A stretch of 64,000 bases of DNA. Origin: a virus. Below, one piece after another: positions 1-20,915 of the stretch. The notes beneath the pieces were generated by a model. The model saw only the letters and a program-made list of their open reading frames with translations, was not told the origin of the DNA and did not search any database. The stretch covers positions 36,912-100,911 of the IMG/VR virus record IMGVR_UViG_3300017917_004441, one strand, 5' to 3'. The translations under genes and the position numbers were made by a program. Positions within the stretch are counted from its first letter, which is position 1, and the number at the start of each line of letters is the position of its first letter.

Positions 1-1
1 C

Positions 2-484
2 AAGGCTAAATTATCACAAATTCACCCATCAGGATTTTGGGGTAGTTTTGTTTCGTTAGAAAACCAGTATGTTACAAGCACAACTACGGCCTACTCTATG
101 ACAGCAGATACACAAACCTCAGGTAACGGTGTAATTGTTTCTGCGGATACAAGATTTGTAGTTGAATATGCTGGAACTTATAATGTACAGTTCTCGAGTC
201 AAATTGAATCAACAGGTGGTGGTAATGCACAAACTATGGATATTTGGTTGGCAATAAATGGTGACAATGTACCATATAGTAATACCCAAGTTGTTGGTAA
301 TTCAAATAACGGAAGGAGTGTTGCTGCTTGGAATTTTGTAGAACCGATGAATGCTGGTGACTATTTTGAAATAAAATTCAGAGTAAGTGATATACGTTTA
401 GGTTTTGCATACGACGCAGGTCCTTTTATTAACCCACCGAGACCCGACATACCTTCGGTGATTGTCACAGTAACACAGGTCTAA
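2..484 (+). CDS. 3' part of a fibre/spike-like structural protein with a C1q/BclA-CTD-like beta-sandwich tip (5'-truncated by the window)
   Basis: The frame is open from base 2 (KAKLSQIHPSGFWGSF...) into the listed 98..484 ORF. The pattern 'AGTYNVQFSSQI...DIWLAING...WNFVEPMNAGDYFEI...PSVIVTVTQV' resembles C1q-like tips of phage fibres. Confidence 0.55.
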   Translation, partial: KAKLSQIHPSGFWGSFVSLENQYVTSTTTAYSMTADTQTSGNGVIVSADTRFVVEYAGTYNVQFSSQIESTGGGNAQTMDIWLAINGDNVPYSNTQVVGNSNNGRSVAAWNFVEPMNAGDYFEIKFRVSDIRLGFAYDAGPFINPPRPDIPSVIVTVTQV

Positions 485-552
485 ACAAATATTTTGTATC
501 TTGTTTTTTTTCGACTTCAATAAATTTACTAAAATATAGAAAATGTAATTCT

Positions 553-580
553 AACCCTCCACTTTTACAGAGGGTTTTTT
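553..580 (+). terminator. Possible intrinsic terminator
   Basis: AACCCTC-N10-GAGGGTT followed by a T-run, between the fibre gene and the GT operon. Confidence 0.45.
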
Positions 581-602
581 ATTTTAGTAAAAAACTGTTT
601 TT

Positions 603-1850
603 ATGAAGATATTTGTGCAAATTGCATCTTATAGGGATCCACAACTTATCCCAACAATCAAGAACATGTTGGAAAATGCAAAAAGACCAAAAAATTTGAG
701 AATTGGTATTGCAAGACAATTCCACCCTGAAGATAAATTTGACGATCTATCAGAATTTGAAAATGACAACAGATTCAGAATCTTAAACATTCCATATCAA
801 GAGGCTGAAGGCGTATGTTGGGCAAGAAACTTAGTTCAACAACTTTATCAGGGTGAGGAATATACACTACAGATTGATTCTCACATGAGATTTGCACCCA
901 ATTGGGATGACGAAATGATTAAGATGATCAAACAACTTCAGAAGAAAGGACATGCTAAACCATTGTTGACAGGATACGTATCATCATTTGATCCCGATAA
1001 CGACCCACAGGGTAGAGTTCAGGAACCTTGGAGAATGGTTTTTGATAGATTTATTCCCGAAGGTGCGGTGTTTTTCCTACCTGAAACTATACCTGGTTGG
1101 AGAGATATGAAACAACCTGTACCCGCGAGATTCTATTCAGCTCACTACGCTTTTACATTAGGACAGTTCTCAACAGAAGTTCAACACAATCCTGAATACT
1201 ATTTCCACGGTGAAGAAATTTCTATTTCAGCAAGAGCTTACACATGGGGATATGATTTATTTCACCCACATAAGGTTTTGATTTGGCACGAATACACTAG
1301 AAAAGGTAGAACCAAACAATGGGATGATGATAAAAAGTGGGTTGATAGAAATAACAAATCACACTTGATGAACAGAAAGTTGTTTGGTATGGATGGTTTA
1401 GAACAAGAAGGACATGATGGACTTTATGGATTTGGACCTGAAAGAACTCTACGTGACTATGAAAAGTATGCAGGTCTGTTGTTTGAAAAAAGGGCGGTAC
1501 AACAATATACCTTAGATAAGAACTATCCACCTAACCCTTACAATTACGAGAGCGAAGAAGAATGGAAAAAGAATTTTGCTTCAGTATTCAAACATTGTAT
1601 TGATATCAATTACAGTTCCGTACCTGAAAAGGATTACGAGTTTTGGGTTGTTGCATTCCACGGACCTAACGATGAAACATTGTTCAGAAAGGATGCGGAC
1701 AAGAATGAAATCCAACGTATCATGAACGATCCAGATGGGTATGGTAAAGTTTGGAGAGAATTCCAAACAGAATCTAAACCAACTTATTGGGTTGTATGGC
1801 CATACTCAACATCTAAGGGATGGTGTGAGAGAATTACAGGAAACTTATAA
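603..1850 (+). CDS. GT60-like glycosyltransferase (Skp1/polypeptide alpha-GlcNAc transferase family)
   Basis: N-terminal IFVQIASYRDP, GVCWAR, LQIDSHMRF (DSH metal motif), YFHGEE and WHEY match the Gnt1/GT60 family pattern. Confidence 0.8.
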   Translation: MKIFVQIASYRDPQLIPTIKNMLENAKRPKNLRIGIARQFHPEDKFDDLSEFENDNRFRILNIPYQEAEGVCWARNLVQQLYQGEEYTLQIDSHMRFAPNWDDEMIKMIKQLQKKGHAKPLLTGYVSSFDPDNDPQGRVQEPWRMVFDRFIPEGAVFFLPETIPGWRDMKQPVPARFYSAHYAFTLGQFSTEVQHNPEYYFHGEEISISARAYTWGYDLFHPHKVLIWHEYTRKGRTKQWDDDKKWVDRNNKSHLMNRKLFGMDGLEQEGHDGLYGFGPERTLRDYEKYAGLLFEKRAVQQYTLDKNYPPNPYNYESEEEWKKNFASVFKHCIDINYSSVPEKDYEFWVVAFHGPNDETLFRKDADKNEIQRIMNDPDGYGKVWREFQTESKPTYWVVWPYSTSKGWCERITGNL

Positions 1851-1852
1851 AA

Positions 1853-2563
1853 ATGGTTACATTTGATGGTAAAAAAATTGCGGACATTGGTTATTTTATC
1901 AATTTGGATGAAAGAACCGATAGACGTGAAAAGTTAGAATCACAACTTACTAAATTTAACATTCAGGGTGTAGAAAGGGTCTCAGCAAATAAAACTACCG
2001 ATTCAGGACCAACAAACTGTAAAAGAAGTCACTTTGACTTGTTACAGAAATTAGTTGATTCAGAACATGAGACCTTATTGGTTTTGGAGGATGATTGTTT
2101 GTTTTTGGATTTTCTATTGGAAGAATCTGATGAAATTTTTGATAACATCAACAAAACTCAATGGGATCTATTTTGGTTGGGTTGTAGAAACAGAAGAACT
2201 CCCTTACTGAAAGAAAATAATTGTTATACGGTTTCTTCAGTTTCCCACGCACAGTCTTATTTGATCAAAAAAGATTTTGCTAAACACATCTTGGAAAGAT
2301 ATCCAATATACCCCCACGATAATCATAACAACGTTCCGATTGATGAATTGTTGACTCTGTGTGTTTATGGATACGATGTTGTTGCCAATCCAAATAGTGT
2401 GAATTTTTACAATTTAGATCAACCTTTGGATGTTCTACCAACACATTACACCGCACTTTGTTATGAGAAGTCTCTAACGACCCAATACTCCTCATATAGT
2501 AATCTTTGGCATTACGAAACCCATTGGGAGGAGTATATAATCAAATCGTTCCCTAAGTGGTAA
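1853..2563 (+). CDS. GT25-family glycosyltransferase
   Basis: YFINLDERTDRR, CKRSH, LVLEDD, WDLFWLG and HAQSYLI are GT25 motifs. Confidence 0.8.
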   Translation: MVTFDGKKIADIGYFINLDERTDRREKLESQLTKFNIQGVERVSANKTTDSGPTNCKRSHFDLLQKLVDSEHETLLVLEDDCLFLDFLLEESDEIFDNINKTQWDLFWLGCRNRRTPLLKENNCYTVSSVSHAQSYLIKKDFAKHILERYPIYPHDNHNNVPIDELLTLCVYGYDVVANPNSVNFYNLDQPLDVLPTHYTALCYEKSLTTQYSSYSNLWHYETHWEEYIIKSFPKW

Positions 2564-2566
2564 AGT

Positions 2567-3304
2567 ATGAAATTAGTTAGTGTTACTTGGTCTTATGGAG
2601 ATGAATCTAATGTGAAGGATACTATCCTTTATAAAAGTTTTATCAAACACAATGATGAGAGTGATTTTGTGAATATTCACTTCAACAGATCAAAATATGC
2701 GGAATTGGAAAGTGAATTTCAATCTAAATTCGGATATCAATATGAGTTTCTATTGTATAGAATCTTTTTATTATCAGATTGGGTAAAATTGATAGATGAT
2801 GATGTTCTGATTTTTTCTGATACCACTGATGTTGTTTGTCTTGGTAAGTTGAGTGACATTGAATTTAATGGCGGTATTGTTTTCTCAGCCGAGAGACATC
2901 AATATCCAAATGACATTTCAAGTTGGGGACCAGTCAATCGTTACCCACAGGAGAATTTGGATAAGTCTAACTTCCTAAATGCGGGTCTTCAGATCTCTGA
3001 AAAAGGTTTATATTTGGAACTTCTAAGGTCTGTCATTGAGAACGTATTTCCTTTGGAATACAAAACATTTGGTGGTGATCAAGGTGTTTATATCTACTAT
3101 CTTATCAATGAAATTTCACCAAAAATTACTTTAGATATAGACCGTAAAGTGTTTGTTAGTACTTATCTAACAAGCCCTGATTGGTATAGAGTAGAGAATG
3201 AGAAATTATTATATAATCCCACAAACTCACACCCACTTTTTGTTCATGATAATGGTTGGAATTATGGAAGTCCTAAAATAATTGAGAGATATAGATTGAT
3301 ATGA
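2567..3304 (+). CDS. PLOD/LH3 glycosyltransferase-domain-like protein
   Basis: VLIFSDTTDVV, IVFSAE, FLNAG, GDQG and PLFVHDNG follow the LH3 GT-domain pattern (FTDxYDV / FSAE / LNSG / DDQ / HGNG). Confidence 0.7.
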   Translation: MKLVSVTWSYGDESNVKDTILYKSFIKHNDESDFVNIHFNRSKYAELESEFQSKFGYQYEFLLYRIFLLSDWVKLIDDDVLIFSDTTDVVCLGKLSDIEFNGGIVFSAERHQYPNDISSWGPVNRYPQENLDKSNFLNAGLQISEKGLYLELLRSVIENVFPLEYKTFGGDQGVYIYYLINEISPKITLDIDRKVFVSTYLTSPDWYRVENEKLLYNPTNSHPLFVHDNGWNYGSPKIIERYRLI

Positions 3305-4032
3305 AAAATGCTATAATTTCCACCTATTATTGTCTTGGTTGTCAAGAACCCTCAAAGGATGAATGTAGATCACGATTTGCATATGATGTTGATGATAACG
3401 ACTTCTATTTGAACTTCAGTAATGATTTCAATCCGTTTGATTTTTCCAACATATCTAATGTTGGTGTGAGTAAACGGAAGGATCTTGTATTCGGTAAGAT
3501 ATTCCGATTGAAAACTTTTATGGAAGAAAATATCTTGGGTAAGTACGATAATATTCTTCACATAGACTATTCAGATACGAAGTTTGCAAGGAGTAGTACG
3601 GAGTTGTTTGAGGACTTTATCAAGACAGGTAAAGATATTGTTATATCAACCGAAAAAAACTGTTGGCCATATCTTCACGCAGTATCAAACTGGTTTGGCA
3701 CTGAATTACCTCAGAAAGAATTTTTCTATGTAAATTCAGGAGCCGTTATATCCAAGACAGAAAAGTTTTACGAAATAATAAAAGAACTTGAATGGATATG
3801 TTTGAATTCTAACATAGACTTTTGGGACGACCAAGGTGTTTGGCAATATTACAACATAAAAGAAAATAACCTCAGTAAGGACCTCAACTCAGAATATTTC
3901 TTTTCAACCGCTGAGTTGGATGAGACTTACTATAAATTTGAAGACGGAGTTATCACTACAAAGTTCGGTACTCAACCTTACTTGATTCATGATAATTCAA
4001 GTTTTTCACTAAACCTAATAAGAAAAATTTAA
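3301..4032 (+). CDS. Second PLOD/LH3 glycosyltransferase-domain-like protein
   Basis: HIDYSD, IVISTEKNCWP, YVNSG, DDQG and PYLIHDN; likely paralog of the preceding gene, with an ATGA overlap. Confidence 0.7.
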   Translation: MKNAIISTYYCLGCQEPSKDECRSRFAYDVDDNDFYLNFSNDFNPFDFSNISNVGVSKRKDLVFGKIFRLKTFMEENILGKYDNILHIDYSDTKFARSSTELFEDFIKTGKDIVISTEKNCWPYLHAVSNWFGTELPQKEFFYVNSGAVISKTEKFYEIIKELEWICLNSNIDFWDDQGVWQYYNIKENNLSKDLNSEYFFSTAELDETYYKFEDGVITTKFGTQPYLIHDNSSFSLNLIRKI

Positions 4033-4033
4033 G

Positions 4034-4642
4034 ATGAGTGTTTCGGGACATTTTGTTTATAAGGGATTGACTATCATGCAACATCCCAACGTAGAGAAAG
4101 CTTTTGAGGAGCTTTTGATTGATCTAAAACCAACAAAAGTGTTGGAAATCGGTACTTCATCAGGAGGACTTACCCTGATGATTAGAGACATTTTGGATAG
4201 AGTTGGTCTATCAGAAACTCGTTTGGTTACCTATGACGTGTATGAACCACAATATCTGAGATATCATGTAAATGATGGTGCAAATATTGAAATCAAAGTA
4301 GAAAACGTATTCAATCACCAATATTCTGACTTGGAGAACGGTCAAGAAATAATTGATTTCATTACTTCAGAGGGAACAACTTTGGTTTTGTGTGATGGTG
4401 GAAGTAAGAAAAACGAATTCAGAATCTTGTCCAACTTCTTGAAAGTCGGTGATGTAATTATGGCTCACGACTATTCTCCTAACGAACCATATTTTAGAGA
4501 GTTTGTTCATGACACTATTTGGAGTTGGTTGGAAATCCAAGACAGTGATATTGAAGCACCCTGTCAACTCAATAATTTGGAAGGATACTTTGAAGAAACG
4601 TTTAAGAATGTCGTATGGGCATGTAGAAAAAAAATGAAATAA
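4034..4642 (+). CDS. SAM-dependent O-methyltransferase (CmcI/Methyltransf_24-like)
   Basis: KPTKVLEIGTSSGG (SAM motif I), VTYD, LCDGG and GDVIMAHD. Confidence 0.7.
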   Translation: MSVSGHFVYKGLTIMQHPNVEKAFEELLIDLKPTKVLEIGTSSGGLTLMIRDILDRVGLSETRLVTYDVYEPQYLRYHVNDGANIEIKVENVFNHQYSDLENGQEIIDFITSEGTTLVLCDGGSKKNEFRILSNFLKVGDVIMAHDYSPNEPYFREFVHDTIWSWLEIQDSDIEAPCQLNNLEGYFEETFKNVVWACRKKMK

Positions 4643-4643
4643 A

Positions 4644-6314
4644 ATGAAAGTTACTTTTGTTACAGGTCTTTGGAATATAAAACGTGATACCTTAGGTGAA
4701 GGTTGGTCAAGGTCATTTGAACATTATTTACAGAAGTTTGAACAACTGTTACAGGCGGATGTGAACTTAATAATTTTCGGTGAAAGTGATTTAGAAGAAT
4801 TCGTTTGGAATCGTCGCAGCCGAGAGAACACTCAATTTATCGTAAGAGATCAAAGTTGGTTCAAATCGGAGTTTTATGACAAGATTCAATCCATAAGGAC
4901 TAACCCTGATTGGTACGGACAAGTAGGATGGTTATCCGAATCAACACAAGCAAAACTTGAGATGTATAATCCTTTGGTGATGTCCAAAGTGTACTTACTA
5001 CATGATGCGAAGTTGATGGATCAATTCAATTCTGACTATATGTTTTGGATTGATGCTGGTCTAACTAACACGGTACACCCAGGTTATTTCACTCACGATA
5101 AAGTGCAGGAAAAATTACCAAAGTATTTTGAAAAATTATCTTTCATTTGTTTTCCTTATGAAGCCAACACTGAGATACACGGATTCAACTTTGCCAAAAT
5201 AAATCAACTTGCCGGGTCAAAAGTGGATATGGTGGCTCGTGGTGGGTTTTTCGGAGGTCCAAAACACGCAATATCAGATCTCAACAGTCTCTATTACAAC
5301 CTTATGAGTTCTACTTTGAACTCAAATTTGATGGGAACCGAGGAATCTTTGTTTACGATCCTGTGTTACAAACACCCTGATCTAATCAATTATTTTGAAA
5401 TTGAATATAATGGTTTGGTCGGTAAGTTTTTTGAAGATTTGAAAAACGAGACCTTGGTGAAAAAATCAAAAGCGCCCGTACAACCCAAAAATACAAATTT
5501 GGATACCAATAACACGGCATTGTATGTAATAACCTTCAATAGTCCAAAACAATTTGAAACATTGATCACTTCAATGTTGGAGTATGATGATGATTTTATC
5601 AACAAACCAAAGAAATTTTTGCTGGATAATTCATCAGATCTCTCAACTACTGAAAAATATAAAGAACTTTGTGATCAACATGGGTTTGAACATATCAAAA
5701 AGGATAATTTGGGAATTTGTGGAGGTAGACAATGGATTGCCGAACATGCTGATGAAAATAACTTTGATTTTTATTGGTTCTTTGAAGATGATATGTTCTT
5801 TTACCCTAAAGAAGGTTCTGTATGTAAAAACGGATTCAATAGATATGTGAAGGGATTATATAAAATTTCTATAGAAATTGCCAAGAATAATAACTTTGAT
5901 TTCTTGAAGTTGAATTATACCGAATTCTTTGGTGATAACGGTACACAATGGTCTTGGTACAACGTTCCACAATCATTCAGGGAAACAAGATGGCCCGAAA
6001 AGAGTCAATTACCTGTACACGGACAAGATCCAAATGCTCCGAGAACTCTGTTCAAGAACATCAGAAGTTATAAAGGTGTACCATTTATAAGTGGTGAAAT
6101 TTATTACTGTAACTGGCCTCAGGTGGTCACCAAAGAGGGAAATGTAAAAATGTTTCTTACTGAGAAGTGGGCGCATCCATTTGAACAGACTTGGATGAGT
6201 TACATGTATCAAGAAACAGTTGCGGGTAACTTGAACCCTGGTATGTTACTTATGACACCAACAGAACACGATAGATTTGAATTTTATGATGGTAAATTGA
6301 GAAAAGAATCCTAA
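4644..6314 (+). CDS. HtrL/YibB-like glycosyltransferase fused to a C-terminal GT-A-like domain
   Basis: N-domain VTFVTGLWNI...YNPLVMSK...FWIDAG...GGFFGG...GTEE is HtrL-like. C-domain LYVITFN...LLDNSS...NLGICGGR...FFEDD is GT-A-like. Confidence 0.7.
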   Translation: MKVTFVTGLWNIKRDTLGEGWSRSFEHYLQKFEQLLQADVNLIIFGESDLEEFVWNRRSRENTQFIVRDQSWFKSEFYDKIQSIRTNPDWYGQVGWLSESTQAKLEMYNPLVMSKVYLLHDAKLMDQFNSDYMFWIDAGLTNTVHPGYFTHDKVQEKLPKYFEKLSFICFPYEANTEIHGFNFAKINQLAGSKVDMVARGGFFGGPKHAISDLNSLYYNLMSSTLNSNLMGTEESLFTILCYKHPDLINYFEIEYNGLVGKFFEDLKNETLVKKSKAPVQPKNTNLDTNNTALYVITFNSPKQFETLITSMLEYDDDFINKPKKFLLDNSSDLSTTEKYKELCDQHGFEHIKKDNLGICGGRQWIAEHADENNFDFYWFFEDDMFFYPKEGSVCKNGFNRYVKGLYKISIEIAKNNNFDFLKLNYTEFFGDNGTQWSWYNVPQSFRETRWPEKSQLPVHGQDPNAPRTLFKNIRSYKGVPFISGEIYYCNWPQVVTKEGNVKMFLTEKWAHPFEQTWMSYMYQETVAGNLNPGMLLMTPTEHDRFEFYDGKLRKES

Positions 6315-6318
6315 CGGG

Positions 6319-6326
6319 TATTTATA
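6319..6326 (+). promoter_or_regulatory. TATTTATA putative late-promoter motif
   Basis: 14 nt upstream of the ATG at 6341; recurs before many structural genes. Confidence 0.6.
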
Positions 6327-6340
6327 ATAAAATACTATCT

Positions 6341-6742
6341 ATGGATTTTTTCATCAAAAAAAATGCGACCTTACCTCTACTGAAGATGCAAGTAGTGCAA
6401 GACGGTAGAAGTGAGTATCAATCATTTATGGAATCGTTGGCAGATGCTACAATTTCATTCACTATGATAAATGAGGCGACAGGTATCCCCAAGATCGTTT
6501 CTAAACCCGCATACATTGTTGAACTCATCGGACTTGATCCAAATGCTTTACCCGAATATTACGTATATTACAGATTCACCAAAAGAGATACCAACACGGT
6601 TGGTAGGTATGTTGGTCAATTTTTGATCAAATACAATCAAGCATTGTTGGGTGGTCCACAAGGGGATTTGATAGTACCCCTAAGGGATGAACTTTTCATC
6701 AATATCCAAGAAAGTTTCATATCTGATTCACCCTGTTGTTGA
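6341..6742 (+). CDS. BppU N-terminal-like (baseplate upper protein) structural protein
   Basis: FFIKKNATLP...ISFTM...YRFTKRDTNTVGRYVGQFLI...LIVP pattern resembles BppU_N Ig-like domains. Confidence 0.5.
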   Translation: MDFFIKKNATLPLLKMQVVQDGRSEYQSFMESLADATISFTMINEATGIPKIVSKPAYIVELIGLDPNALPEYYVYYRFTKRDTNTVGRYVGQFLIKYNQALLGGPQGDLIVPLRDELFINIQESFISDSPCC

Positions 6743-6771
6743 CGGGACTATCCCAAACTTGTATATTTATA
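6739..6771 (+). promoter_or_regulatory. sigma70-like promoter TTGACG-N17-TATATT overlapping a TATTTATA motif
   Basis: -35 at 6739-6744, -10 at 6762-6767, TATTTATA at 6764-6771; upstream of the DNA polymerase. Confidence 0.65.
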
Positions 6772-6839
6772 GTTGAATGAGGAAGACTAATTCCACACTA
6801 CGTGGAAGAGAATGTGTCACTCGGTAAATTATACATACA

Positions 6840-9683
6840 ATGATCACAAACGAAGAAATTGAAACGTTTTTACAGGGCAATGACCCCGAAGAGTTTATAG
6901 TCGCAATAGAATTTGACTACGTAACAGACTCAATATATAAAATCAAAGAAATTCCTGGTAAAGGTAAGGCAATCATCAAAGATCACTTTGTACCATTCGC
7001 ATGGGTGGGTGATCTACGTGGTTTGAATTTTTACAATGGTTCCAAATTGGAACAGAAAGCCGCAATGTCAAAACATAAGATTGTCATTGAGAAGTTGGAA
7101 ACTCACGGTAACGAACGATTAGAGAATGGTTTGACCTATTTGGTAAAGTGTTTAGCAGGTTATAGAGCACTCACTCAATTTTTCCGTGAAGGTGGAATTG
7201 ATCCTTGGGGTGATAAAGTCCGTGACTTATTTCTCATGTTACCACCCGTAGAACAATATCTCATTCAAAAAGAAAAACGACTTTTCAAAGGTTATGAAGA
7301 ATACAATGATATAACCCGATTTGTATTTGACTTGGAGACCACTTCGTTAGAACCCAAAGATGGTAGAATCTTCATGATTGGAATGAAAACTAATACAGGT
7401 TTTCACGAAGTTATTGAATGTGATACTGAAGAGAAAGAACGTATTGGTCTAATCAAGTTTTTTGACACAATTGATCATTTGAAACCATCTATTATCGGTG
7501 GTTATAACTCATTCAACTTTGACTGGTACTGGATTTTTGAACGATGTAAAGCACTTGGATTGGACGTGAAGAAGATATGTAAGTCACTCAATCCACAGAG
7601 AACTATTACACAGAAGGAACAAATGCTCAAACTTGCTAACGAAGTTGAGAAGTATCCACAGGTTTCTATTTGGGGATATAACGTTATTGATATTCTCCAT
7701 TCAGTAAGACGTGCACAGGCAATCAACTCCAACATCAAGAGTGCTGGTTTGAAATACATTACCCAATATCTTGAGATTGAAGACAATAACCGTATCTACA
7801 TTGATCACACAGATATTGGTCCTTTCTATGCCAACAAAGAAGAGTTTTGGTTGAATACTGAAAACGGTAAATATAAAAAGGCCGATAATCCCAAGTTTGT
7901 TGACCTTGATAAGAGATTTCCAAACGTATATGAAAAGGTTACAGGTGATAAGTTAGTTGAGATGTATCTTGACGATGACTTGGAGGAAACCCTCAAAGTA
8001 GACGATGAGTTCAACCAAGGTTCGTTCCTATTGGCTTCGTTAGTTCCAACAACATATGAACGAGTAAGTACGATGGGTACCGCAACTTTGTGGAAAATGA
8101 TTATGTTGGCATGGTCTTACAAACACAATTTGGCTATTCCCGCTAAGGAAACAAAAACAGATTTCGTAGGAGGTCTTTCTCGTCTAATCAAGGTAGGTTA
8201 CTCAACCAATGTATTGAAGTTGGACTTCTCTTCTCTGTATCCATCTATTCAGTTGGTTCACGATGTATTCCCAACCTGTGATGTAACAGGTGCAATGAAG
8301 GGATTACTTAAGTATTTCCGTGACACACGTATTTTGTACAAACAATTAGCTGAGGAGTTTTCTGAATCCGACCCCAAAAAGTCTAAGTCATACGATAGAA
8401 AACAATTACCTATTAAGATCTTCATCAACTCCATGTTCGGTGCATTATCGGCTCCACAGGTATATCATTGGGGTGATATGTATATGGGTGAACAAATTAC
8501 CTGTACGGGACGACAATATCTTCGTCAGATGATTTCATTCTTTATGAGTAGAGGATATGAACCTTTAGTTATGGATACGGACGGTGTCAACTTCTCAGCA
8601 CCTAAGGATGTTGAGAACCGAAAGTATATCGGACGTGGTTTGAACTGGAAGGTAAAAGAAGGTAAGGAATACACAGGTGCTGCTGCCGATATTGCTGAAT
8701 ACAATGACATCTTTATGAGGGGTGAGATGGCTTTGGATAATGATGGTGTATGGCCATCATGTATCAACTTGGCTCGTAAAAACTATGCTCTTATGACTGA
8801 CTCAGGTAAAATCAAGTTGGTTGGTAATACAATCAAATCAAAGAAGTTACCTGGTTATATTGAAGATTTCCTTGATAAGGGTATCAAGATGTTGTTGAAA
8901 GGTCAGGGTAAGGAATTCGTAGAATACTACTACGAATATTTGGAGAAAATTTACGATCAACAGATTCCACTTATCAAGATTGCTCAAAGAGCCAAGGTAA
9001 AACAAAGTTTGGAGGAGTATAAACTAAGATGTACTCAAAAGACAAAGTCAGGTTCTTTGATGGCAAGACAAGCTCACATGGAACTTGCAATCCAACACAA
9101 CTTGGCAGTAAACTTGGGTGATATCATCATGTATGTAAATAACGGTGAGAAAGCATCACACGGTGATGTTCAAAAAGTACCAGCAAAGAAATACAGTGAA
9201 CTCCAAAGAGAAAGACATTTCAAAAAGACCGGTGAAGTACTAGAGGATACTGAATCAAGAATCCAACTGAATTGTTATTTGTTGAATCAAAGTGAACTTG
9301 AAACAAACCCTGATATGACAGGTGATTACAACGTGGCAAGGGCAATCTCAACATTCAACAAACGAATTGAACCACTTATGGTTGTTTTCCAAGATGAGGT
9401 TAGAGGTAACTTACTTGTAGATAATCCTGAAAAACGAGGTATTTTCACATCAAAACAGTGTGAGTTGATCAACGGACATCCATTGTCAGATGGTGACCAA
9501 GATGATTTGGGAGATGTACTTACGGTGTCTGACCAAGAATTGAACTATTGGGGAAGACGAGGTCTAAATCCGACTTATATGTATGATATTGCTGAAGAAG
9601 GTTGGGAAAATAAGGTAACCCAATTACCAAATTTTCAATCCATCAGAGGAGAGGATGTACCAACCCTTGTTGATGCTGACTAA
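6840..9683 (+). CDS. polB: Family B DNA polymerase with 3'-5' exonuclease
   Basis: ExoI FDLET, ExoII GYNSFNFD, ExoIII YLDDD, motif A DFSSLYPS, motif B KIFINSMFG, motif C MDTDG. Confidence 0.95.
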   Translation: MITNEEIETFLQGNDPEEFIVAIEFDYVTDSIYKIKEIPGKGKAIIKDHFVPFAWVGDLRGLNFYNGSKLEQKAAMSKHKIVIEKLETHGNERLENGLTYLVKCLAGYRALTQFFREGGIDPWGDKVRDLFLMLPPVEQYLIQKEKRLFKGYEEYNDITRFVFDLETTSLEPKDGRIFMIGMKTNTGFHEVIECDTEEKERIGLIKFFDTIDHLKPSIIGGYNSFNFDWYWIFERCKALGLDVKKICKSLNPQRTITQKEQMLKLANEVEKYPQVSIWGYNVIDILHSVRRAQAINSNIKSAGLKYITQYLEIEDNNRIYIDHTDIGPFYANKEEFWLNTENGKYKKADNPKFVDLDKRFPNVYEKVTGDKLVEMYLDDDLEETLKVDDEFNQGSFLLASLVPTTYERVSTMGTATLWKMIMLAWSYKHNLAIPAKETKTDFVGGLSRLIKVGYSTNVLKLDFSSLYPSIQLVHDVFPTCDVTGAMKGLLKYFRDTRILYKQLAEEFSESDPKKSKSYDRKQLPIKIFINSMFGALSAPQVYHWGDMYMGEQITCTGRQYLRQMISFFMSRGYEPLVMDTDGVNFSAPKDVENRKYIGRGLNWKVKEGKEYTGAAADIAEYNDIFMRGEMALDNDGVWPSCINLARKNYALMTDSGKIKLVGNTIKSKKLPGYIEDFLDKGIKMLLKGQGKEFVEYYYEYLEKIYDQQIPLIKIAQRAKVKQSLEEYKLRCTQKTKSGSLMARQAHMELAIQHNLAVNLGDIIMYVNNGEKASHGDVQKVPAKKYSELQRERHFKKTGEVLEDTESRIQLNCYLLNQSELETNPDMTGDYNVARAISTFNKRIEPLMVVFQDEVRGNLLVDNPEKRGIFTSKQCELINGHPLSDGDQDDLGDVLTVSDQELNYWGRRGLNPTYMYDIAEEGWENKVTQLPNFQSIRGEDVPTLVDAD

Positions 9684-12668: not shown

Positions 12669-14435
12669 TTATCTTCTGCTATTAATTGACTTGAGAATTT
12701 CTTCTACATAGTCACCACTTGATTCCTTATCACCCATGATAGTTTCAAAAATATCCTTTTTCTTTTTTAGAATATCGTAAATAATTCCTTCAATTGTGTT
12801 GTCAAAAATCGGGTAATAAACCAATACATTGTTTTTTTGTCCGTATCGGTATGCTCTGTCCTCAGCTTGTGAGTGGTCTGATGGAAGGAACGATAAATCG
12901 TTCATCACCACCGCTTCTCCTGAGGTCAGGGTAATACCAGTACCTGCCGCTTTGATGTTTCCAACAAATACTTTTACTGACTCATCATTTTGGAACTTGT
13001 CAACGGATTCTTGACGTTCTCTTTGGTTCATTGAACCATCAAGTCTCACCGCCTTTTTTCCAAAGTGTTCCAATATCATCTCAAGGGTTTTGGTAAAGTT
13101 GGTAAAGACAATAACCTTCTTGTCTTGTTCAATAATGTTCTCACACAGTTCAATGGTTGAGGATACTTTCTCTTGGGCGATACATTGGCGAACTTGGGTT
13201 AGTTTGGTGAACTGAAGGGTCAGGGAGTCCGCCTCACCACTTTTATCATACCAATCGTAATAGTCCCCCATAAGTTCCTCATATTGTCGTGAGCGAAGTC
13301 TCAGGTATACTGGAGTGATGATTTTATCGGGTAGATCAAGTACGTTTTCTTTTAGTCTACGTAAAACCTGTGGTTTTGTTCTGTCACGGAGTTCTTCCAA
13401 ATTGGATGATCCACTGACGTTCCACACTTTTCTTTTTCCCGCTCTGAATTGGAATCCGTTACAGTATCTTTTTACATAAGCCATCCAGTTCACCGCAACG
13501 GGTGAGTCAATCAGGTTCAGAAGATTGTAATAATTGATAGGACGACTTGTGATGGGGGTACCAGTGAGTAACCACAAGCGTTCTACTTTTGAAGCAAAAT
13601 CATTTATGAGTTTGGTTCTTTGGGCTTGTTTGTTTTGAATATAATGAGCCTCGTCAATAATAACCAAGTCAAACCCAGAATTAAGAATAATTGAATCTTT
13701 CCGATTTTTCTCATCGTGGAAATTTTTAATGATATCGTAGTTTATAATTACAAAGTCGGCGTCCTCCCATTTCTTACCTTCAATGATTGAAGTGGTACGA
13801 TCGGTGTAATTTTCAATTTCTCTTTGCCAGTTGATCTTCAGAGATGCTGGACAAATGATGAGGATTTTCTTTGACTTTGTCTCAAGTGCCGCTATGATGG
13901 TTGAGGTTGTCTTACCCAATCCCATGTCGTCAGCCAAAATCATTTTTTTGTTCTCACACAACTTTTGGATTGCCTCCTTTTGGTGTTCAAGTGGCGGACG
14001 GTGTGAATAGTTTGAATAGTCAATCTCAACATTCTTTACCGTATTGTCTTTGATAAGGGCAACTTTTGGTAACCAAAAGTCGTGAACAAAATCTTTTTCA
14101 AAAAACTTACCCCAAATATGATATGAGGTATCTTTTTCCACCAATAACTTTTCAATGTAAACTTGTTGGGGTATTGAGGTGAACAGTTTGTCATCGGCAA
14201 TCTTCTGTGCGAAATATGGGTCCAAGTCAACCCACTTTTTGGCTACTTTGGGAACCCTTGAATGGAAGTTGATGATGTATTCTGACTGTGCACGGGTGGG
14301 GTAAAACTTTGGATTGTCCAACATTTTGGTTTTCAAACGCAAGATATAATTGTTGGCACCTTCGTATTTTTCCAACAGTTCCAATGCTTTACGCTCCAAA
14401 ACGCCTACAGCTGATATGTTTGTCTGTTCTTCCAA
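12669..14435 (-). CDS. SNF2-family (SMARCAL1/HARP-like) helicase/translocase
   Basis: LADDMGLGKT, ICPASL, DEAH, LTGTP and QAEDRAYRYGQ; TTG start. Confidence 0.9.
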   Translation of the reverse strand: MEEQTNISAVGVLERKALELLEKYEGANNYILRLKTKMLDNPKFYPTRAQSEYIINFHSRVPKVAKKWVDLDPYFAQKIADDKLFTSIPQQVYIEKLLVEKDTSYHIWGKFFEKDFVHDFWLPKVALIKDNTVKNVEIDYSNYSHRPPLEHQKEAIQKLCENKKMILADDMGLGKTTSTIIAALETKSKKILIICPASLKINWQREIENYTDRTTSIIEGKKWEDADFVIINYDIIKNFHDEKNRKDSIILNSGFDLVIIDEAHYIQNKQAQRTKLINDFASKVERLWLLTGTPITSRPINYYNLLNLIDSPVAVNWMAYVKRYCNGFQFRAGKRKVWNVSGSSNLEELRDRTKPQVLRRLKENVLDLPDKIITPVYLRLRSRQYEELMGDYYDWYDKSGEADSLTLQFTKLTQVRQCIAQEKVSSTIELCENIIEQDKKVIVFTNFTKTLEMILEHFGKKAVRLDGSMNQRERQESVDKFQNDESVKVFVGNIKAAGTGITLTSGEAVVMNDLSFLPSDHSQAEDRAYRYGQKNNVLVYYPIFDNTIEGIIYDILKKKKDIFETIMGDKESSGDYVEEILKSINSRR

Positions 14436-14462
14436 TACGTAAAAAGATAATGTTTATTGGTA

Positions 14463-14469
14463 TATTTAT
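14463..14469 (+). promoter_or_regulatory. TATTTAT motif
   Basis: 8 nt upstream of the ATG at 14478, in the short divergent intergenic region. Confidence 0.5.
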
Positions 14470-14477
14470 CAAGTAAG

Positions 14478-14993
14478 ATGATGCAGAAACTCGTTCCAAT
14501 TACAAGATTAGGTAAATTCTTCGGTAGTGAAGATTTTGGTTTGGACATATCCATGGGTCGTGAATGGCTTGATGGGGATATGAATTTCCAAGTGGTTCTA
14601 TATAGAGTAGACAGAACTAAAAGTATCAACGATGACGTTTATGGTGAAGTAGTAAAAGATGGAATTCAATTCCTTCCACCTATCTCTATAAATGCCTATG
14701 TAAGAATTGAAGAAGCAACAGAACAATTCTTGGGTACCAGTAAAGTCATTCAAAACGAACCTGGTGTTCTGAAGTTTAGTGTATATCAAAAAGAACTTGA
14801 AGACTTGGAAGTCAACATCCAACTTGGTGATTATATCGGTTATTGGATTACTGAAGATCAGGTGAGATACTACTCAATCGTGGATGCGGGTTCACCGAAC
14901 TATGATAATAAACACACCTATGGAGGTTATAAGAAATTCTACTTCTCTTATACGGCAACCCCTGTTAGTGAAAATGAATTTAGAGGTCTATAA
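14478..14993 (+). CDS. Putative head-closure/neck protein (gp14-like)
   Basis: VVLYRVD...DDVYGE...LGDYIGY pattern and position before the tail terminator and sheath. The ATG at 14478 is preferred over the upstream TTG. Confidence 0.5.
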   Translation: MMQKLVPITRLGKFFGSEDFGLDISMGREWLDGDMNFQVVLYRVDRTKSINDDVYGEVVKDGIQFLPPISINAYVRIEEATEQFLGTSKVIQNEPGVLKFSVYQKELEDLEVNIQLGDYIGYWITEDQVRYYSIVDAGSPNYDNKHTYGGYKKFYFSYTATPVSENEFRGL

Positions 14994-16036
14994 TGGCACT
15001 TCCAAAAAAACAAATAATTCCAAATATCAATCTTACCCCTGAAAAGATTCTTTATCAGAGGAGAGAACAACTATTGGATTATATCAAAGATGACGGAACT
15101 TATCTTCCAAAGAGTTTATTACACGCTGATTTGGATAAGGGGTTCTTGGATTTTGTAAAAGAAGATTTACGAACGGTAGTTGAAGGGTCTGTTATTCAAA
15201 CCGTTGATATAATTATCACCACACAAAATTGGGCTCAGTTGACTGAGACTTGGAATTTTTCGGATTTAAATGGAAATCCTGAATTACCTTTTATTACAAC
15301 AGTAAGAAATCCTGATGTAAAATATGGTAGTAATCCAGCCATCATTTATAACATACCCAATCGTAGAGAATATTTTTATGCCGCGGTTCCTTCGTGGAAT
15401 GGTAACGTAAAAGGTTTGGATATTTACAAAATCCCACAACCTGTTCCTGTGGATATCACTTATAACGTGAAAATATTGAGTAATCGTATGAGGGAACTCA
15501 ATGAATTCAATAAAAACGTTATTCAGACTTTTGCCTCAAGACAAGCCTACAGACAAATCAACGGACATTACATTCCTATTATTATGAATAATATTACAGA
15601 TGAGTCTGTCGTTGATATAGGGAGACGTAGATTTTACATCCAAAACTATGAGTTCACGATGTTAGCATTTCTTTTGGATGAGGACGAGTTTGAAGTTGCT
15701 CCCGCAGTCTCAAGAGTATTCAACACCTTTGAGTTAGTGAACAACGTAAGACCTAGTAAGAAAAAATCCTTTCCCGAAAACCCTGACACATTTGAATACT
15801 CAATGATCTACCCCCCAAGTGGATTGACTAAATCAATAGTCGTGGATTATACGGGTGACTTATCAATTAACAGAACTGTTAACGTGTCAACCTATGACGT
15901 GTATATCAACGATGATTTTTACGGGTCTGATGTCAGTTTGATTCAGGTAAATACTAATGAAACTCTAAGGGTTGATATAACCCCCACTGACTTGACTCAA
16001 CCATCTGAGATAGTCTACGGGGTCAAGTTAGTATGA
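14993..16036 (+). CDS. Putative tail terminator/sheath stabiliser (gp15-like)
   Basis: LPFITTVR and PVPVDITYNVKILS...ELNEF pattern; position upstream of the sheath. Confidence 0.55.
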   Translation: MALPKKQIIPNINLTPEKILYQRREQLLDYIKDDGTYLPKSLLHADLDKGFLDFVKEDLRTVVEGSVIQTVDIIITTQNWAQLTETWNFSDLNGNPELPFITTVRNPDVKYGSNPAIIYNIPNRREYFYAAVPSWNGNVKGLDIYKIPQPVPVDITYNVKILSNRMRELNEFNKNVIQTFASRQAYRQINGHYIPIIMNNITDESVVDIGRRRFYIQNYEFTMLAFLLDEDEFEVAPAVSRVFNTFELVNNVRPSKKKSFPENPDTFEYSMIYPPSGLTKSIVVDYTGDLSINRTVNVSTYDVYINDDFYGSDVSLIQVNTNETLRVDITPTDLTQPSEIVYGVKLV

Positions 16037-16186
16037 GTCTCCGTAGATGTCCCTTTTTTCCTGACATTTTTCCAAAATAAGGTTCTCTAAAAACTTATAC
16101 ATTTTCAAACCGTTCTTGTCACAATATTTTTTCAGAACAGAATGCGTCTGAGATGATATCTTTAGATTTTTGATTTCTTTTTTCAT
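16028..16186 (-). CDS. Small ribbon-helix-helix-like DNA-binding protein
   Basis: MKKEIKNLKISSQTHSVLKKYCDKNGLKMYKFLENLILE has a beta-helix-helix RHH pattern; TATTTATA lies on the minus strand at 16222-16229. Confidence 0.6.
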   Translation of the reverse strand: MKKEIKNLKISSQTHSVLKKYCDKNGLKMYKFLENLILEKCQEKRDIYGDSY

Positions 16187-16265
16187 AGTGAGAAAAAAGG
16201 CAGAAAAAAAACTGCCCATTTTATAAATAGAAAAGATTAAGTAAAGTTTTTGGGTTTTTGCCGAA

Positions 16266-16272
16266 TATTTAT
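16266..16272 (+). promoter_or_regulatory. TATTTAT motif
   Basis: Upstream of the tail sheath; divergent from the copy at 16222-16229 on the minus strand. Confidence 0.55.
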
Positions 16273-16307
16273 GTAATAAAAATAAATTTTATTGAACCTA
16301 AAACAAA

Positions 16308-19300
16308 ATGGCAGTATCAAATAAAATATTCGTATCTCCTGGAGTCTATACTTCTGAAAGAGATTTGAGTTTTGTAGCTCAAAGTGTGGGTGTAACAACT
16401 TTGGGTCTGGTTGGTGAAACACAAATCGGTCCCGCATTTGAGCCAATCTTTATAACAAATTACGATGAGTTCGAAGCTTTCTTCGGTGGAACTCTTCCGG
16501 AAAAATTTGAAAACACACAAATTCCTAAATATGAATTGGCGTACATCGCCAAATCTTACCTACAACAGTCTAACCAATTGTTTGTTACTCGTGTACTTGG
16601 TCTATCAGGTTATGATGCGGGTCCTTCTTGGTCTTTATTGACTGTTGCGAACGTTGATTCTGCCACTGTTGCTTTGAATGGTTTGTCAACATCTTTCTCT
16701 GTAGGATTCACAGGATGTACTAATGGAACAGGTGTTACTTTTACAGGTGGTGCTTTCGCTCCTCAGATCTTAGGAAATCTAAACAGTCCTTACCCTATGT
16801 TGAATGGTGGTGAGAGTACTATCGCAACTGACGTATCTGATTTCCTTCAAGGAATCATTGACCTACCAGCATCTTCAGGTTACACCGCAGCTTACTTCGG
16901 TACTATTCCTGACGCTAACTTCAATGCTTTGTCACCAACTTATACTGCATCAACAAACGTATTCGGAGTATCAGGTCTTTCTGAATCAACCGCTGACTAC
17001 ACTTCACCAAACAACGACTCTTGGTACTACTCTAACTTTGATTTGACAGGTGGAACAGGATATTCAGGTTACTCATTCTTTGGAGTGGTAACTCAATTGG
17101 ATGCTTTTGGTCCTTCAGGATGTTTCTCAGGAACAGTATCAGGTACGGTATTCAACTACGCAGGTACTGCATATGATGGTTGGGGAGACTTGGTTGTTGC
17201 AACTTGGAGATCTCGTGGTATTTCTCTTTATGGTACTGGTCAAGACGGTCCATCTTATGTTGTGACAGGAACTACCGATGTTATCATTGACTGTTCAGGA
17301 ATTTACTCAGGTATCACATTCAATCCATATGCTACTTTCAACCTTTCAGGTGTTACTGCAGACGGTACTGATTTCGCATTTACAACTTCTATGAACTCAG
17401 GTGATCCAAACTACATCACCAAGGTATTCGGTATAACTAACTTTGGTAAACCAAGAAATGAGGTTCCGTTGTTCGTTGAAGAACAATTCCAAAATATGTT
17501 GAACTACGGTTACAACCAAGGATTCATTCGCGGTCTACAATGTGCACCATTGGCACTTCCTGGTTTGAGATATTCTCCTAACACAGCAACTATTGCTAAC
17601 TACGTTGAAAAATACCAAGACGCTGAATCACCATGGGTGGTTTCTGAATTGGAAGGCACAACTGTTGACAGATTGTTCAGAGTTATCACTATTGCTGACG
17701 GTAATGGAGCAAACGCTCAAATCAAAGTAACAATTGAAAACATCTCTTTCAACAGTGCATCATTTGACGTTGGTGTAAGAAGTTTCTTTGACACTGACTC
17801 AAACCCTGTTTACTTGGAGAAATTTACTCAGTGTACTATGGATCCATCAAGCAACAGTTACATCGGTGTGAAAATCGGTACTGCTGATGGTGAGTACGCA
17901 CTTCTTTCTAAGTACATCATGTTGGAGTTGAACGACAAAGCTAACCCTGATTCAGTACCTTGTGGTTTTGAAGGTTATGTTATTCGTTCATACGGATCTG
18001 CTCAACCACCATACCCTGTTTACAAAACAGCATATAACTACCCTGGTGAAGTTGTAGGTAACCCACCTTTCAACATTCCTTTCGGTCCAAACCAAATCTT
18101 GTCACCTGGTGACAACGTAAGACGTACCTTCTTGGGAATTTCTTCACAAATAGGTTATGACCCTGATTTCTTCCAATACAAGGGAAGACAAGCACCAATT
18201 AATTTGTGTAACGTTGATTCACTTCCATGGAATTACATCACAAAAGGATTCCACATGGATTCAGGAGCAACTGTTGTAACAATCACCTCAGGTCCTACCG
18301 CAGGTACACCAGCATTTGATTGTGGTGATGCTTCCTTCCAATCTAATCCTACAGATCCAGCTAACCCATACTACACAATCCAAGCTCGTAAATTTGCATT
18401 CTTGGTACAAGGTGGATTTGATGGTTGGGACATTTACCGTGAGTACAGAACTAACGATGACAGATACCAAATTGGTGGTTCATTGTGGCAGAGAGGTGCT
18501 TGTCCATCAACTCGTTACCCACTAGCAGATGGTTGGGGAGCATTCAAATTGATTGACCAAGATGGTTTCTCTGAGTTCTCAACTTCTGACTACTACGCAT
18601 ACCTATTGGGTATTTCAACTTTCAGTAACCCTGAAGCGGTAAACATCAACGTGTTCGCTACTCCTGGTATTGACTACATCAACAACTCTAACTTGGTTGA
18701 ACAAGCAATTGATATGGTTACATATCAGAGAGCTGACTCACTTTACATCGTGACAACTCCTGACTGTAACGTTCTTATCCCAACAAACACGGATAACATT
18801 GTTCCTCCAACTGAAGCTGTTGATAACTTGAATAACACAGGTATTGATTCTAACTACACAGCAACATACTACCCATGGATCTTGGTTAGAGATACTGTAA
18901 ACAACACCCAAATCTACATCCCACCAACAAATGAGGTTTGTAGAAACTTGGCTCTTACAGATAACATATCATTCCCATGGTTCGCAACCGCGGGTTACAC
19001 AAGAGGTTTGGTAAATGCTGTCAAGGCACGTATCAAACTAACACAAGACCAAAGAGATACTCTTTACCAAGGTCGTATCAACCCAATTGCTACCTTCTCT
19101 GACGTAGGTACTGTAATTTGGGGTAACAAGACTCTTCAAATCGCTGACACTGCTCTAAACAGAATCAACGTAAGAAGATTGTTACTACAGGCTCGTAAGT
19201 TGATCTCAGCAGTTGCGGTTAGATTGTTGTTTGAACAAAATGACGCTAAAGTACGTCAAGACTTCCTTGACTCAGTAAACCCAATCCTTGACGCAATCAG

Positions 19301-19469: not shown

Positions 19470-19480
19470 TATAAACAAAT

Positions 19481-19500
19481 GGTGGGGGGAAACCCCCACC
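19481..19500 (+). terminator. Stable hairpin after the sheath gene
   Basis: GGTGGGGG-GAAA-CCCCCACC (8 bp stem, GNRA loop) with only a weak T-tract. Confidence 0.55.
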
Positions 19501-19519
19501 TTAGCCTTTAAAATAATTT

Positions 19520-20329: not shown

Positions 20330-20381
20330 AGAGAATAAATTTTTGAAAAACAAAGTAAAGTCAAAAAATTTTAAACGGCAG

Positions 20382-20389
20382 TATTTATA
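20382..20389 (+). promoter_or_regulatory. TATTTATA motif
   Basis: Upstream of the tail tube gene. Confidence 0.6.
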
Positions 20390-20426
20390 ATAAACTAAAA
20401 TAAAAAAACAAAAAAAATAACATACC

Positions 20427-20915
20427 ATGGCAGACTTATTAATGAAAATGCCGGTTCCTTATGAACCAAAAAGAACCAACAGGTTTATCCTACGTTTTGA
20501 TTCCACGTTGGGTATTAACGAATGGTTCGTTGAATCAACGGGTCGTCCAAGTATTGACATCAACCCTGTTGAGATTCCATTCTTGAACACTTCTACATTT
20601 GTTGCAGGAAGATTCAAATGGAATTCTATAAATGTTAAATTCCGTGACCCAATCGGTCCATCAGCAACTCAGGCTCTTATGGAGTGGGTTCGTCTACACG
20701 CTGAATCAGTGACTGGTCGTATGGGTTACGCTGCGGGATATAAGAAAAACGTTGACCTTGAAATGTTGGACCCAACAGGAGTTGTTGTGGAAAAATGGAT
20801 TTTGGAAGGAACGATGATTACAAAAACAGCTTGGTCTGAAGCTAACTACTCTCAGGACTCATTGGCTACTTTGGATGCAACTCTCCAAATGGATCGTTGT
20901 ATCTTGGTTTACTAA
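20427..20915 (+). CDS. Tail tube protein (gp19-like)
   Basis: EPKRTNRF, GRFKWNSINVKFRD, YKKNVDLEMLDPTGVVVEKWILEG; located after the sheath. Confidence 0.85.
   Translation: MADLLMKMPVPYEPKRTNRFILRFDSTLGINEWFVESTGRPSIDINPVEIPFLNTSTFVAGRFKWNSINVKFRDPIGPSATQALMEWVRLHAESVTGRMGYAAGYKKNVDLEMLDPTGVVVEKWILEGTMITKTAWSEANYSQDSLATLDATLQMDRCILVY

Follow-up and report, generated by a model that had tools for sequence, protein, structure and literature searches.

The glycosyltransferase (GT) family GT60 comprises polypeptide alpha-N-acetylglucosamine (GlcNAc) transferases, whose targets are Thr-rich mucin domains in Dictyostelium and Trypanosoma cruzi, and the hydroxyproline of Skp1 (PMC8724618, PMC3769586). 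In the Skp1 pathway, the GT60 enzyme is followed by a bifunctional diglycosyltransferase (PMC8724618). A DxH motif in place of DxD is the mark of GT60 and of GT27 (PMC7185993), the latter being the family of the polypeptide N-acetylgalactosamine (GalNAc) transferases (ppGalNAc-Ts). With regard to phages, the GTs of mycobacteriophages Che8 and Rita are reported to glycosylate the phages' own structural proteins in the host cytoplasm, which yields a glycan-coated virion (Freeman et al. 2023, as cited in PMC11256854). The virions of phage XacN1 show at least two glycoprotein bands positive in periodic acid-Schiff (PAS) staining, for which the authors proposed phage GTs as the source (PMC5852040). 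In the literature that we searched, we found neither a functionally characterised prokaryotic or phage GT60 enzyme nor a mucin-type system that is led by a GT60/ppGalNAc-T-like enzyme, has a hypervariable cassette and is also present in bacteria. Here, we describe a six-gene cluster led by a GT60-like gene, located at 603-6314 of a 64,000-nt stretch of viral DNA (hereafter the window), which is the 3' 64 kb of the 100,911-bp IMG/VR contig IMGVR_UViG_3300017917_004441. The CheckV completeness of this contig is ~34%, which implies that the source genome is a jumbo phage of about 300 kb. Based on gene families, predicted folds and genomic context, we consider it fairly probable that the cluster encodes a cytoplasmic mucin-type protein O-glycosylation system of the phage, whose virions would then be sugar-coated.

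The cluster comprises the following open reading frames (ORFs):

603-1850, plus strand: GT60-like polypeptide N-acetylhexosamine (HexNAc) transferase candidate, putative initiator (PF11397, DxH motif, predicted fold)
1853-2563, plus strand: GT25-family glycosyltransferase (PF01755, E 3.7e-9), in the variable cassette
2567-3304, plus strand: LH3/PLOD-type GT-A domain protein a (PF25342, GT_PLOD, E 7e-7), in the variable cassette
3301-4032, plus strand: LH3/PLOD-type GT-A domain protein b (PF25342, E 3e-9), a paralogue of protein a
4034-4642, plus strand: class I S-adenosylmethionine-dependent methyltransferase (PF04989, RMNT_CmcI, E 8e-6; PF13578, Methyltransf_24, E 3e-5)
4644-6314, plus strand: candidate bifunctional diglycosyltransferase, HtrL (GT6-like) fused to a GT-A domain (GnT-I/B4GALNT1-like) (PF09612, E 5e-20), hereafter HtrL-GT

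The spacing between these ORFs is 2, 3, -4, 1 and 1 nt. The first-pass annotation of this DNA had listed six tightly coupled genes of these family types; its coordinates are exact and the Pfam assignments agree with it. The maximum 19-residue hydropathy was at most 1.17 in all seven proteins scored, and as the six cluster proteins lack hydrophobic segments, they are expected to be soluble enzymes. No Pfam match to a flippase, polymerase, ligase, Gtr-type or polyprenyl-phosphate GT was found within the cluster.

The protein encoded by 603-1850 matches PF11397 ('GlcNAc', CAZy GT60; E 3e-69) with 234.6 bits, where 21 would suffice, over profile positions 2-44 and 95-351, and it matches phrog_24687 with an E-value of 5e-169. 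It exhibits a D92-S-H94 motif, and D92-x-H94 is invariant across 35 aligned homologues of 35-95% identity. The AlphaFold (AF2) model, with a predicted local distance difference test score (pLDDT) of 94.9, comprises a catalytic domain (residues 1 to ~327) and a C-terminal beta-sandwich of ~90 residues (~325-415), which takes the place of the ricin lectin domain of the animal enzymes. Polypeptide GalNAc-transferases of GT27 fill ranks 1-21 of the Foldseek search with this model, and ranks 1-29 of the VIA-align search are all ppGalNAc-Ts (Z 19.3-22.5, ~270 residues); the next structural matches are generic GT2 enzymes, with Z of 17.9 or lower. Searches of PDB sequences with the single sequence and with a profile gave nothing useful.

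The metazoan GT27 enzymes, which act on dense Thr/Pro tracts, are therefore the best structural match (Z 19-22 over ~270 residues) and share the DxH motif. Nevertheless, sequence identity to them is ~12%, and the phage enzyme is not a GT27 member by hidden Markov model (HMM) and is devoid of signal anchor, Golgi context and ricin lectin domain. The eukaryotic GT60 enzymes, Gnt1 and Gnt2 of Dictyostelium and OGNT of T. cruzi, resemble it in PF11397, the DxH motif, a GT27-like catalytic fold and the lack of a ricin-type lectin domain, and the phage enzyme, like Gnt1, is predicted to be soluble and nucleotide-sugar dependent. It differs from them in being encoded by a phage (and, in homologous form, by many bacteria), in its additional C-terminal beta-sandwich of ~90 residues and in that its activity is a prediction. 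This candidate activity, suggested by genomic association, would be the transfer of alpha-HexNAc from a uridine diphosphate (UDP) sugar to Thr, Ser or hydroxyproline. Family and structure prediction are in agreement with the first-pass proposal of a GT60-like initiator: the protein is GT60 by HMM, it keeps DxH, its predicted fold is nearest to GT27, and the other ORFs of the cluster appear as soluble extending or tailoring enzymes.

The partner of the GT60-like gene is HtrL-GT, which accompanies GT60 in both phages and bacteria. Its AF2 model (pLDDT 86) shows two GT-A domains. The HtrL part (residues 1-266) is nearest to the GT6 retaining transferases (Z~13), and the C-terminal part (285-556) is nearest to B4GALNT1, GnT-I and POMGnT1 (Z~14.7), while the full model aligns with the tandem-GT proteins LH3, Mimivirus R699, COLGALT1, LARGE1 and K4CP. 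As a tandem GT-A protein, the model resembles LH3, COLGALT1 and R699, the last being one of the Mimivirus R699/R655-type enzymes. These matches are glycan-extending enzymes; a search of PDB sequences with HtrL-GT gave nothing useful. The proposed pairing of a GT60 initiator with a bifunctional diglycosyltransferase as the next enzyme recalls the Skp1 pathway, in which Gnt1 is followed by PgtA. In contrast to that pathway, the phage partner is an HtrL (GT6-like) and GT-A fusion instead of a GT2 and GT74 fusion, and the later steps would be encoded in a hypervariable cassette.

This cassette became apparent from related phage loci. A word-limited metagenome protein search gave 7,315 GT60 homologue matches, and 407 IMG/VR loci were confirmed. 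Across 75 related loci, GT60 (77-95% identity) and HtrL-GT (53-85%) are the bookends of an interval that ranges from 0.8 to 9.3 kb and, in the relative G001 (295 kb, 98% complete), extends over 17.5 kb. The interval holds 57 gene families, which include GT25, GT10 fucosyltransferase-like and GT4-like enzymes, FkbM-type and CmcI-type methyltransferases and a carbamoyltransferase. Only three other contigs share the cassette of the window (four genomes in all). Its GT25 gene belongs to the cassette family c1, present in 41 of the 75 loci, its methyltransferase gene to c2 (16 loci) and the gene of LH3/PLOD-type protein a to c5 (8 loci only). The methyltransferase, which has a weak match to CmcI in PDB, is probably a sugar O-methyltransferase.

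In PDB sequence searches, the GT25 protein aligns with human COLGALT1 in the catalytic domain (E 9e-5) and LH3/PLOD-type protein b matches the GT domain of human LH3 over residues 69-239 (E 1.6e-6). These direct matches recall the glycosylation of collagen hydroxylysine by COLGALT1 (GT25) and LH3, and could mean that the GT25 and LH3-type enzymes act on a collagen-like (Gly-Ser/Thr-Ser)n fibre of the phage and not on a glycan of Thr/Pro tracts. The same contig does encode a 798-aa ORF with a Gly-X-Y repeat of ~636 aa, and the gene directly ahead of the cluster has a weak BclA_C match. Nevertheless, the two PLOD-like ORFs (243-245 aa) consist of the GT domain alone, devoid of a lysyl hydroxylase domain, and the repeat is devoid of Lys. 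The collagen-like gene is 35 kb distant, the cassette of the window is optional and found in four genomes only, and the relative G001 has collagen-like genes together with a cassette lacking an LH3-type GT. We consider a collagen-like acceptor very unlikely. In G001, the sole genome that allows the check, the LH3-type cassette and the collagen-like fibre were not seen to covary, and this idea was dropped. The collagen-like ORF is located at 542-2938 of the contig (G000; plus strand, locus L005), and its repeat is of the type Gly-(Ser/Thr/Asn)-Ser, with no Lys and one Pro; in the near-complete G001, similar genes are present at both contig ends.

With regard to the acceptors of the proposed O-glycosylation, the candidates are proteins with Thr/Pro (TP) tracts. 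Two of their genes are located in the window:

59635-63270, plus strand: 1211-aa Cys-rich SprB-repeat fibre-type protein, candidate acceptor, with TP tracts at 60397-60549 and 62590-62937
63284-64000, plus strand: 5' part of a candidate acceptor protein, with a TP tract at 63491-63997 that reaches the contig end

Long Thr/Pro tracts had been noted on first inspection at 60424-60519, 62608-62925 and 63518-64000, and our scan recovered all three in frame, with the limits listed above. The first protein matches PF13573 (SprB, E 1e-24), and its SprB repeats point to a Bacteroidota host. Both genes lie after a baseplate wedge gene (45198-47039), the first of them within a run of large genes. In the whole contig there are 11 TP tracts in five ORFs, amounting to 914 aa, of which 369 are Thr and 202 are Pro. 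Seven of the 11, which are the densest ones, sit just outside the window in two genes directly upstream on the same strand, encoding proteins of 1282 and 1064 aa; the latter matches a 'virion structural protein' PHROG and exhibits Laminin_G_3 domains. Three fibre-type genes of the same strand come directly ahead of the cluster, and this links the GT genes to candidate structural acceptors.

The flanks of the cluster are as follows:

2-484 (contig 36808-37395), plus strand: 3' part of a 195-aa ORF, the last gene ahead of the cluster; possible fibre-tip domain
6341-6742, plus strand: conserved 133-aa protein with no assigned function, 3' of HtrL-GT
6840-9683: family B DNA polymerase, in the downstream flank after the 133-aa ORF

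The upstream flank is a fibre-type set on the plus strand, formed by the 1282-aa and 1064-aa virion-type proteins and the 195-aa ORF, which starts 22 nt after the 1064-aa gene and whose BclA_C match (E 0.0054) is below threshold, as it scores 17 bits and the cut-off is 38. The cluster had been described as lying between two structural-type genes; this is correct for the upstream side only, since downstream the 133-aa protein is followed by the DNA polymerase. A homologue of the 133-aa protein (40-95% identity) is located directly 3' of HtrL-GT in nearly all related loci; profile searches gave no Pfam and no PHROG match for it.

The proximity of DNA polymerase B bears on another explanation, in which the enzymes glycosylate a modified DNA base as a protection against restriction, and the variability of the cassette reflects an arms race with modification-dependent nucleases. 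Sugar patterns on phage DNA are known to vary (PMC13326640), and the C-terminal domain of HtrL-GT matches the PHROG of beta-glucosyl-HMC alpha-glucosyltransferase (E 1e-5) and, weakly, TAGT (E 0.0012). This TAGT match scores 19.2 bits, below the cut-off of 27.5, and the structural matches that we found are protein- or glycan-directed GT-A enzymes. For the DNA glycosyltransferases characterised in PMC13326640, the best structural matches are bacterial enzymes of the GT4 type, BshA and sucrose-phosphate synthase among them. No Tet/JBP gene (PF12851) was found in five long relatives, including the 98%-complete 295-kb genome, an absence that is unproven as the TET control search matched nowhere and the contig of the window is ~34% complete. 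The relative G001 is devoid of a thymidylate-synthase-family gene (PF00303), and the ThyA-like genes of three other relatives match canonical thymidylate synthases (E 1e-74), with no match named as a hydroxymethylase among the 60 listed. DNA hypermodification is, in our view, the least probable of the explanations considered, and extremely so. The thymidylate synthase genes of these three relatives (L088, L089 and L090 in G002, G005 and G004, respectively) encode 357-411 aa, compared with ~264-316 aa in the solved enzymes, and match in two to three pieces, which suggests that they contain an insertion.

TP tracts are constant neighbours of GT60 in the lineage of the window. In 37 of 42 related contigs (88%), they are present within 8 kb upstream of GT60, always on the same strand and with a mean length of 410 aa; within 8 kb downstream they are present in only 5 of 74 loci. 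The GT60 homologue was found by tblastn in only four cultured phages among the phage records, namely XacN1, Xoo-sp13, CM1 and RAS14, which are distant jumbo phages of Xanthomonas and Stenotrophomonas. When the cluster was compared by megablast with 50,697 phage records, no match was obtained. In XacN1 and Xoo-sp13, the records that we studied closely, GT60 (47% identity) and HtrL-GT (40%) flank a carbamoyltransferase gene and two ORFs, and the locus adjoins baseplate genes and a gene encoding a fibre-type protein of ~3,300 aa (3313 aa) with short PT tracts (~25 aa). The XacN1 locus (ORF334-ORF330) is similar to that of the window in its homologous GT60 and HtrL-GT around tailoring genes, its position beside a baseplate and giant-fibre module, and the PAS-stained glycoproteins of the virion. 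It differs in the content of its cassette, the shortness of its PT tracts and its gammaproteobacterial host. With regard to Che8 and Rita, the likeness lies in phage-encoded GTs with the phage's own virion proteins as targets (here candidate targets); their glycans are reported on major capsid proteins, whereas the candidate acceptors here are fibre or baseplate TP tracts.

A more distant GT60-like gene (28% identity, 339 aa) is present in a complete 108-kb phage (G039; L242:9504-12740), in a structural module near a portal-like gene, and directly adjoins a gene whose product, a fibre-like protein of 735 aa, carries long (Gly-Val)n repeats. A TP tract that appeared to adjoin this gene was an opposite-strand reading of the (Gly-Val)n repeat and was dropped.

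Beyond phages, at least 559 GT60 loci were found in the GTDB species genomes. The closest bacterial GT60 proteins (63-70% identity) are encoded on contigs of Saprospiraceae and Lewinellaceae metagenome-assembled genomes (MAGs), one of which is 610 kb long, and these families are likely the host clade. HtrL-GT is the commonest neighbour of bacterial GT60 (19 of 65 loci, several phyla). ORFs rich in Ser/Thr/Pro (STP), defined by a window of at least 72% of these residues, are enriched near GT60: they account for 18 of 348 ORFs within three genes of GT60 and 3 of 493 ORFs farther off in the same loci (odds ratio 8.9), with a p-value of 4e-5 that is indicative only as the bacterial loci are not all independent. 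The co-occurrence of GT60 with TP or STP tracts, a check on which was proposed at first reading, holds in the phage's own lineage, in the distant XacN1 group and, independently, in bacteria of several phyla.

Several types of bacterial neighbourhoods can be distinguished. In Burkholderiales (L267, L287, L290, L295, L318; about 10 kb around position 10001), GT60 is located inside type VI secretion system (T6SS) clusters with TssE, TssF, TssA, a fimbrial/MrkD-like protein, VgrG and Rhs. The VgrG proteins of these clusters exhibit long C-terminal tracts of (TP)n or PPPTE/PPPSE, and this suggests that the T6SS spike is glycosylated. In Saprospiraceae, Lewinellaceae and Acidimicrobiaceae MAGs, proteins adjacent to GT60 exhibit, as seen by eye, an RR-type signal resembling those of twin-arginine translocation (Tat) and an STP/TP tract of 70-150 aa (L245:8504-9649, minus strand; L249:7997-9751, minus strand; L286:11563-12243, plus strand), and HtrL-GT is also present in L245 and L249. 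Two of these proteins, from Bacteroidota, appear by eye to end in a C-terminus like those of the type IX secretion system (T9SS). The Tat route would fit a modification in the cytoplasm ahead of export.

Other GT60/HtrL genes, in loci of Acidobacteriota, of Vicinamibacterales and of some alphaproteobacterial MAGs or genomes, are accompanied by an HPr-kinase-like gene or by a gene for a PqqD-type peptide-recognition protein (PF05402, E 1e-11), and usually by both; examples from the first two groups are L278:8861-9130, L285:4270-4536, L272 and L280. A Gemmatimonadaceae MAG (L255:8510-9235) shows a PqqD-like N-terminus, recognised by eye, fused to a TP/STP tract. This context could indicate an acceptor other than the fibre TP tracts, namely a small peptide or metabolite, as in ribosomally synthesised and post-translationally modified peptides, or a non-virion phage protein, and the carbamoyl- and methyltransferases of the cassettes are known from natural-product pathways too. 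However, the phage cluster is devoid of a PqqD-like gene and of a short precursor-like ORF, the PqqD context itself favours a polypeptide substrate, and giant proteins with TP tracts are the constant neighbours in phages; we deem such an acceptor quite improbable. A contig assigned to a Planctomycetaceae MAG (TMED10; L262) encodes, at 614-3445 and 7502-9265, near a GT60 gene of 46% identity, two proteins with many Cys-bordered TP tracts in the style of the phage described here, and may be a misbinned phage contig.

The bacterial loci are also relevant to whether the cluster remodels the host surface, either by altering an envelope glycan (lipopolysaccharide (LPS) core, O-antigen or capsule) or by glycosylating secreted host proteins with TP/STP tracts; superinfection block or changed cell properties could be its purpose. 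GT25 and HtrL_YibB are families of LPS loci, the hypervariable cassette is like O-antigen loci, and polymorphic GT clusters of jumbo phages were interpreted in this way by Iyer et al. (PMC7824862). The contig also has genes for GT2, GT4 and GT31-like enzymes, a PfkB kinase, a cytidylyltransferase-like protein (HldE-like), a cupin and a HAD phosphatase, and GT60 (63-70% identical) and HtrL-GT genes are located by secreted STP proteins in the likely host clade. In contrast, both the family and the fold of the first enzyme are polypeptide-directed, and all six proteins are soluble, with no membrane protein, flippase, polymerase, ligase or polyprenyl-phosphate GT in the cluster. Bacterial GT60 neighbourhoods are not loci for LPS or capsular polysaccharide, and the phage's own TP-tract genes are directly upstream in 88% of the relatives. 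We regard host-surface remodelling as unlikely, albeit less so than the other alternatives.

Based on these observations, a mechanism can be proposed for the mucin-type glycosylation of the phage's own proteins. During synthesis of the acceptors in the host cytoplasm, the soluble GT60-like enzyme would use a UDP-sugar to place a HexNAc on Thr (or Ser) within the long TP tracts of the phage's fibre proteins or baseplate-attached proteins, tracts that are Thr/Pro-rich as are the mucin domains of protists. The two-domain HtrL-GT would add two more sugars, and the genes between the bookends, here those of GT25, the two LH3-type GTs and the O-methyltransferase, would extend and decorate the chain. 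This middle part can be swapped as a cassette and is not the same in close relatives, so that each phage would carry its own type of glycan on its fibres. The gene content, motifs, synteny, variability of the cassette and genomic association with TP/STP-tract proteins are direct observations, as are the folds as predicted; the nature of the acceptor, the identity of the sugars, the order of the steps, capping by the methyltransferase and a benefit in protease resistance, adhesion or shielding are what we infer from them. The glycosylation system proposed by the first-pass annotation is supported by the in silico checks of family, fold and co-occurrence, and little support was found for DNA or the host envelope as the target.

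In addition to the partial dependence among the bacterial loci, several points weigh against this interpretation. When viral contigs were chosen by a TP-coding DNA pattern, with no matched control set, 17 of 46 had GT60, and 13 of these 17 belong to one lineage; the evidence of association is weakened because the carriers are related. Seven of 11 near-complete TP-bearing viral genomes are devoid of GT60, and TP tracts could be plain linkers. The glycoprotein bands of XacN1 are not assigned to genes. The families GT25 and HtrL initially became known through loci for the LPS core, a pathway of the nucleoside diphosphate (NDP)-heptose type and additional GTs are encoded on the other strand of the contig, and comparable jumbo-phage clusters were interpreted as modifying host capsule or LPS (Iyer et al., PMC7824862). 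The cluster also borders the replication module.

Phage virion glycosylation is already known from a few mycobacteriophages and is hinted at in XacN1; what would be new here is its GT60-led mucin-type form with a hypervariable cassette. More tentatively, and with somewhat less conviction than doubt, we propose that GT60 and HtrL-GT are the core of a prokaryote-wide cytoplasmic pathway for mucin-type O-glycosylation of proteins with Thr/Pro or Ser/Thr/Pro tracts. Among the targets of this possible pathway would be the fibres of phages, the VgrG spikes of T6SS and secreted proteins with RR-type (Tat-like) signals and T9SS-like C-termini. In a very abundant lineage of environmental jumbo phages, a hypervariable tailoring cassette would have been inserted between the two core genes, so that close relatives would show different 'glycotypes' on their fibres, comparable to the O-antigen serotypes of bacteria. 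If this is true, mucin-type O-glycosylation, understood as HexNAc on dense Thr/Pro tracts added by a ppGalNAc-T-like starter enzyme, is not restricted to eukaryotes and is at work in a phage lineage very common in metagenomes and in bacteria of many phyla. The variability of the cassette suggests that the glycan shown by the fibres is under strong selection, with implications for host recognition, for resistance to proteases or grazers and for the origin of phage 'serotypes'.

Other features of the contig concern its organisation. A scan of positions 1-7000 of the window for sigma-70 promoters and terminators gave no more sites than shuffled sequence. Two huge ORFs (1641 aa, 23795-28720; 2162 aa, 29032-35520), which have no PHROG match at E of 0.001 or lower, follow the tail tube and baseplate-hub genes of the window. 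The genes for a DnaB-like helicase and both ribonucleotide reductase subunits are located at 40236-44636, between the tail genes and the baseplate-wedge gene; the replication and structural modules are thus interleaved. Beyond the window, a second sugar gene set is present on the minus strand at 13038-27112 of the contig (loci L005 and L006). It comprises genes for GT2, GT4-like and GT31-like enzymes, a Glyco_tranf_2_5 protein, a phrog_7162 GT, PhoH, a PfkB kinase, a cytidylyltransferase-like protein (as in a split HldE), a cupin and a HAD phosphatase, and may supply a donor of the NDP-heptose type. Genes for a dUTPase and an exonuclease are interspersed in this set.

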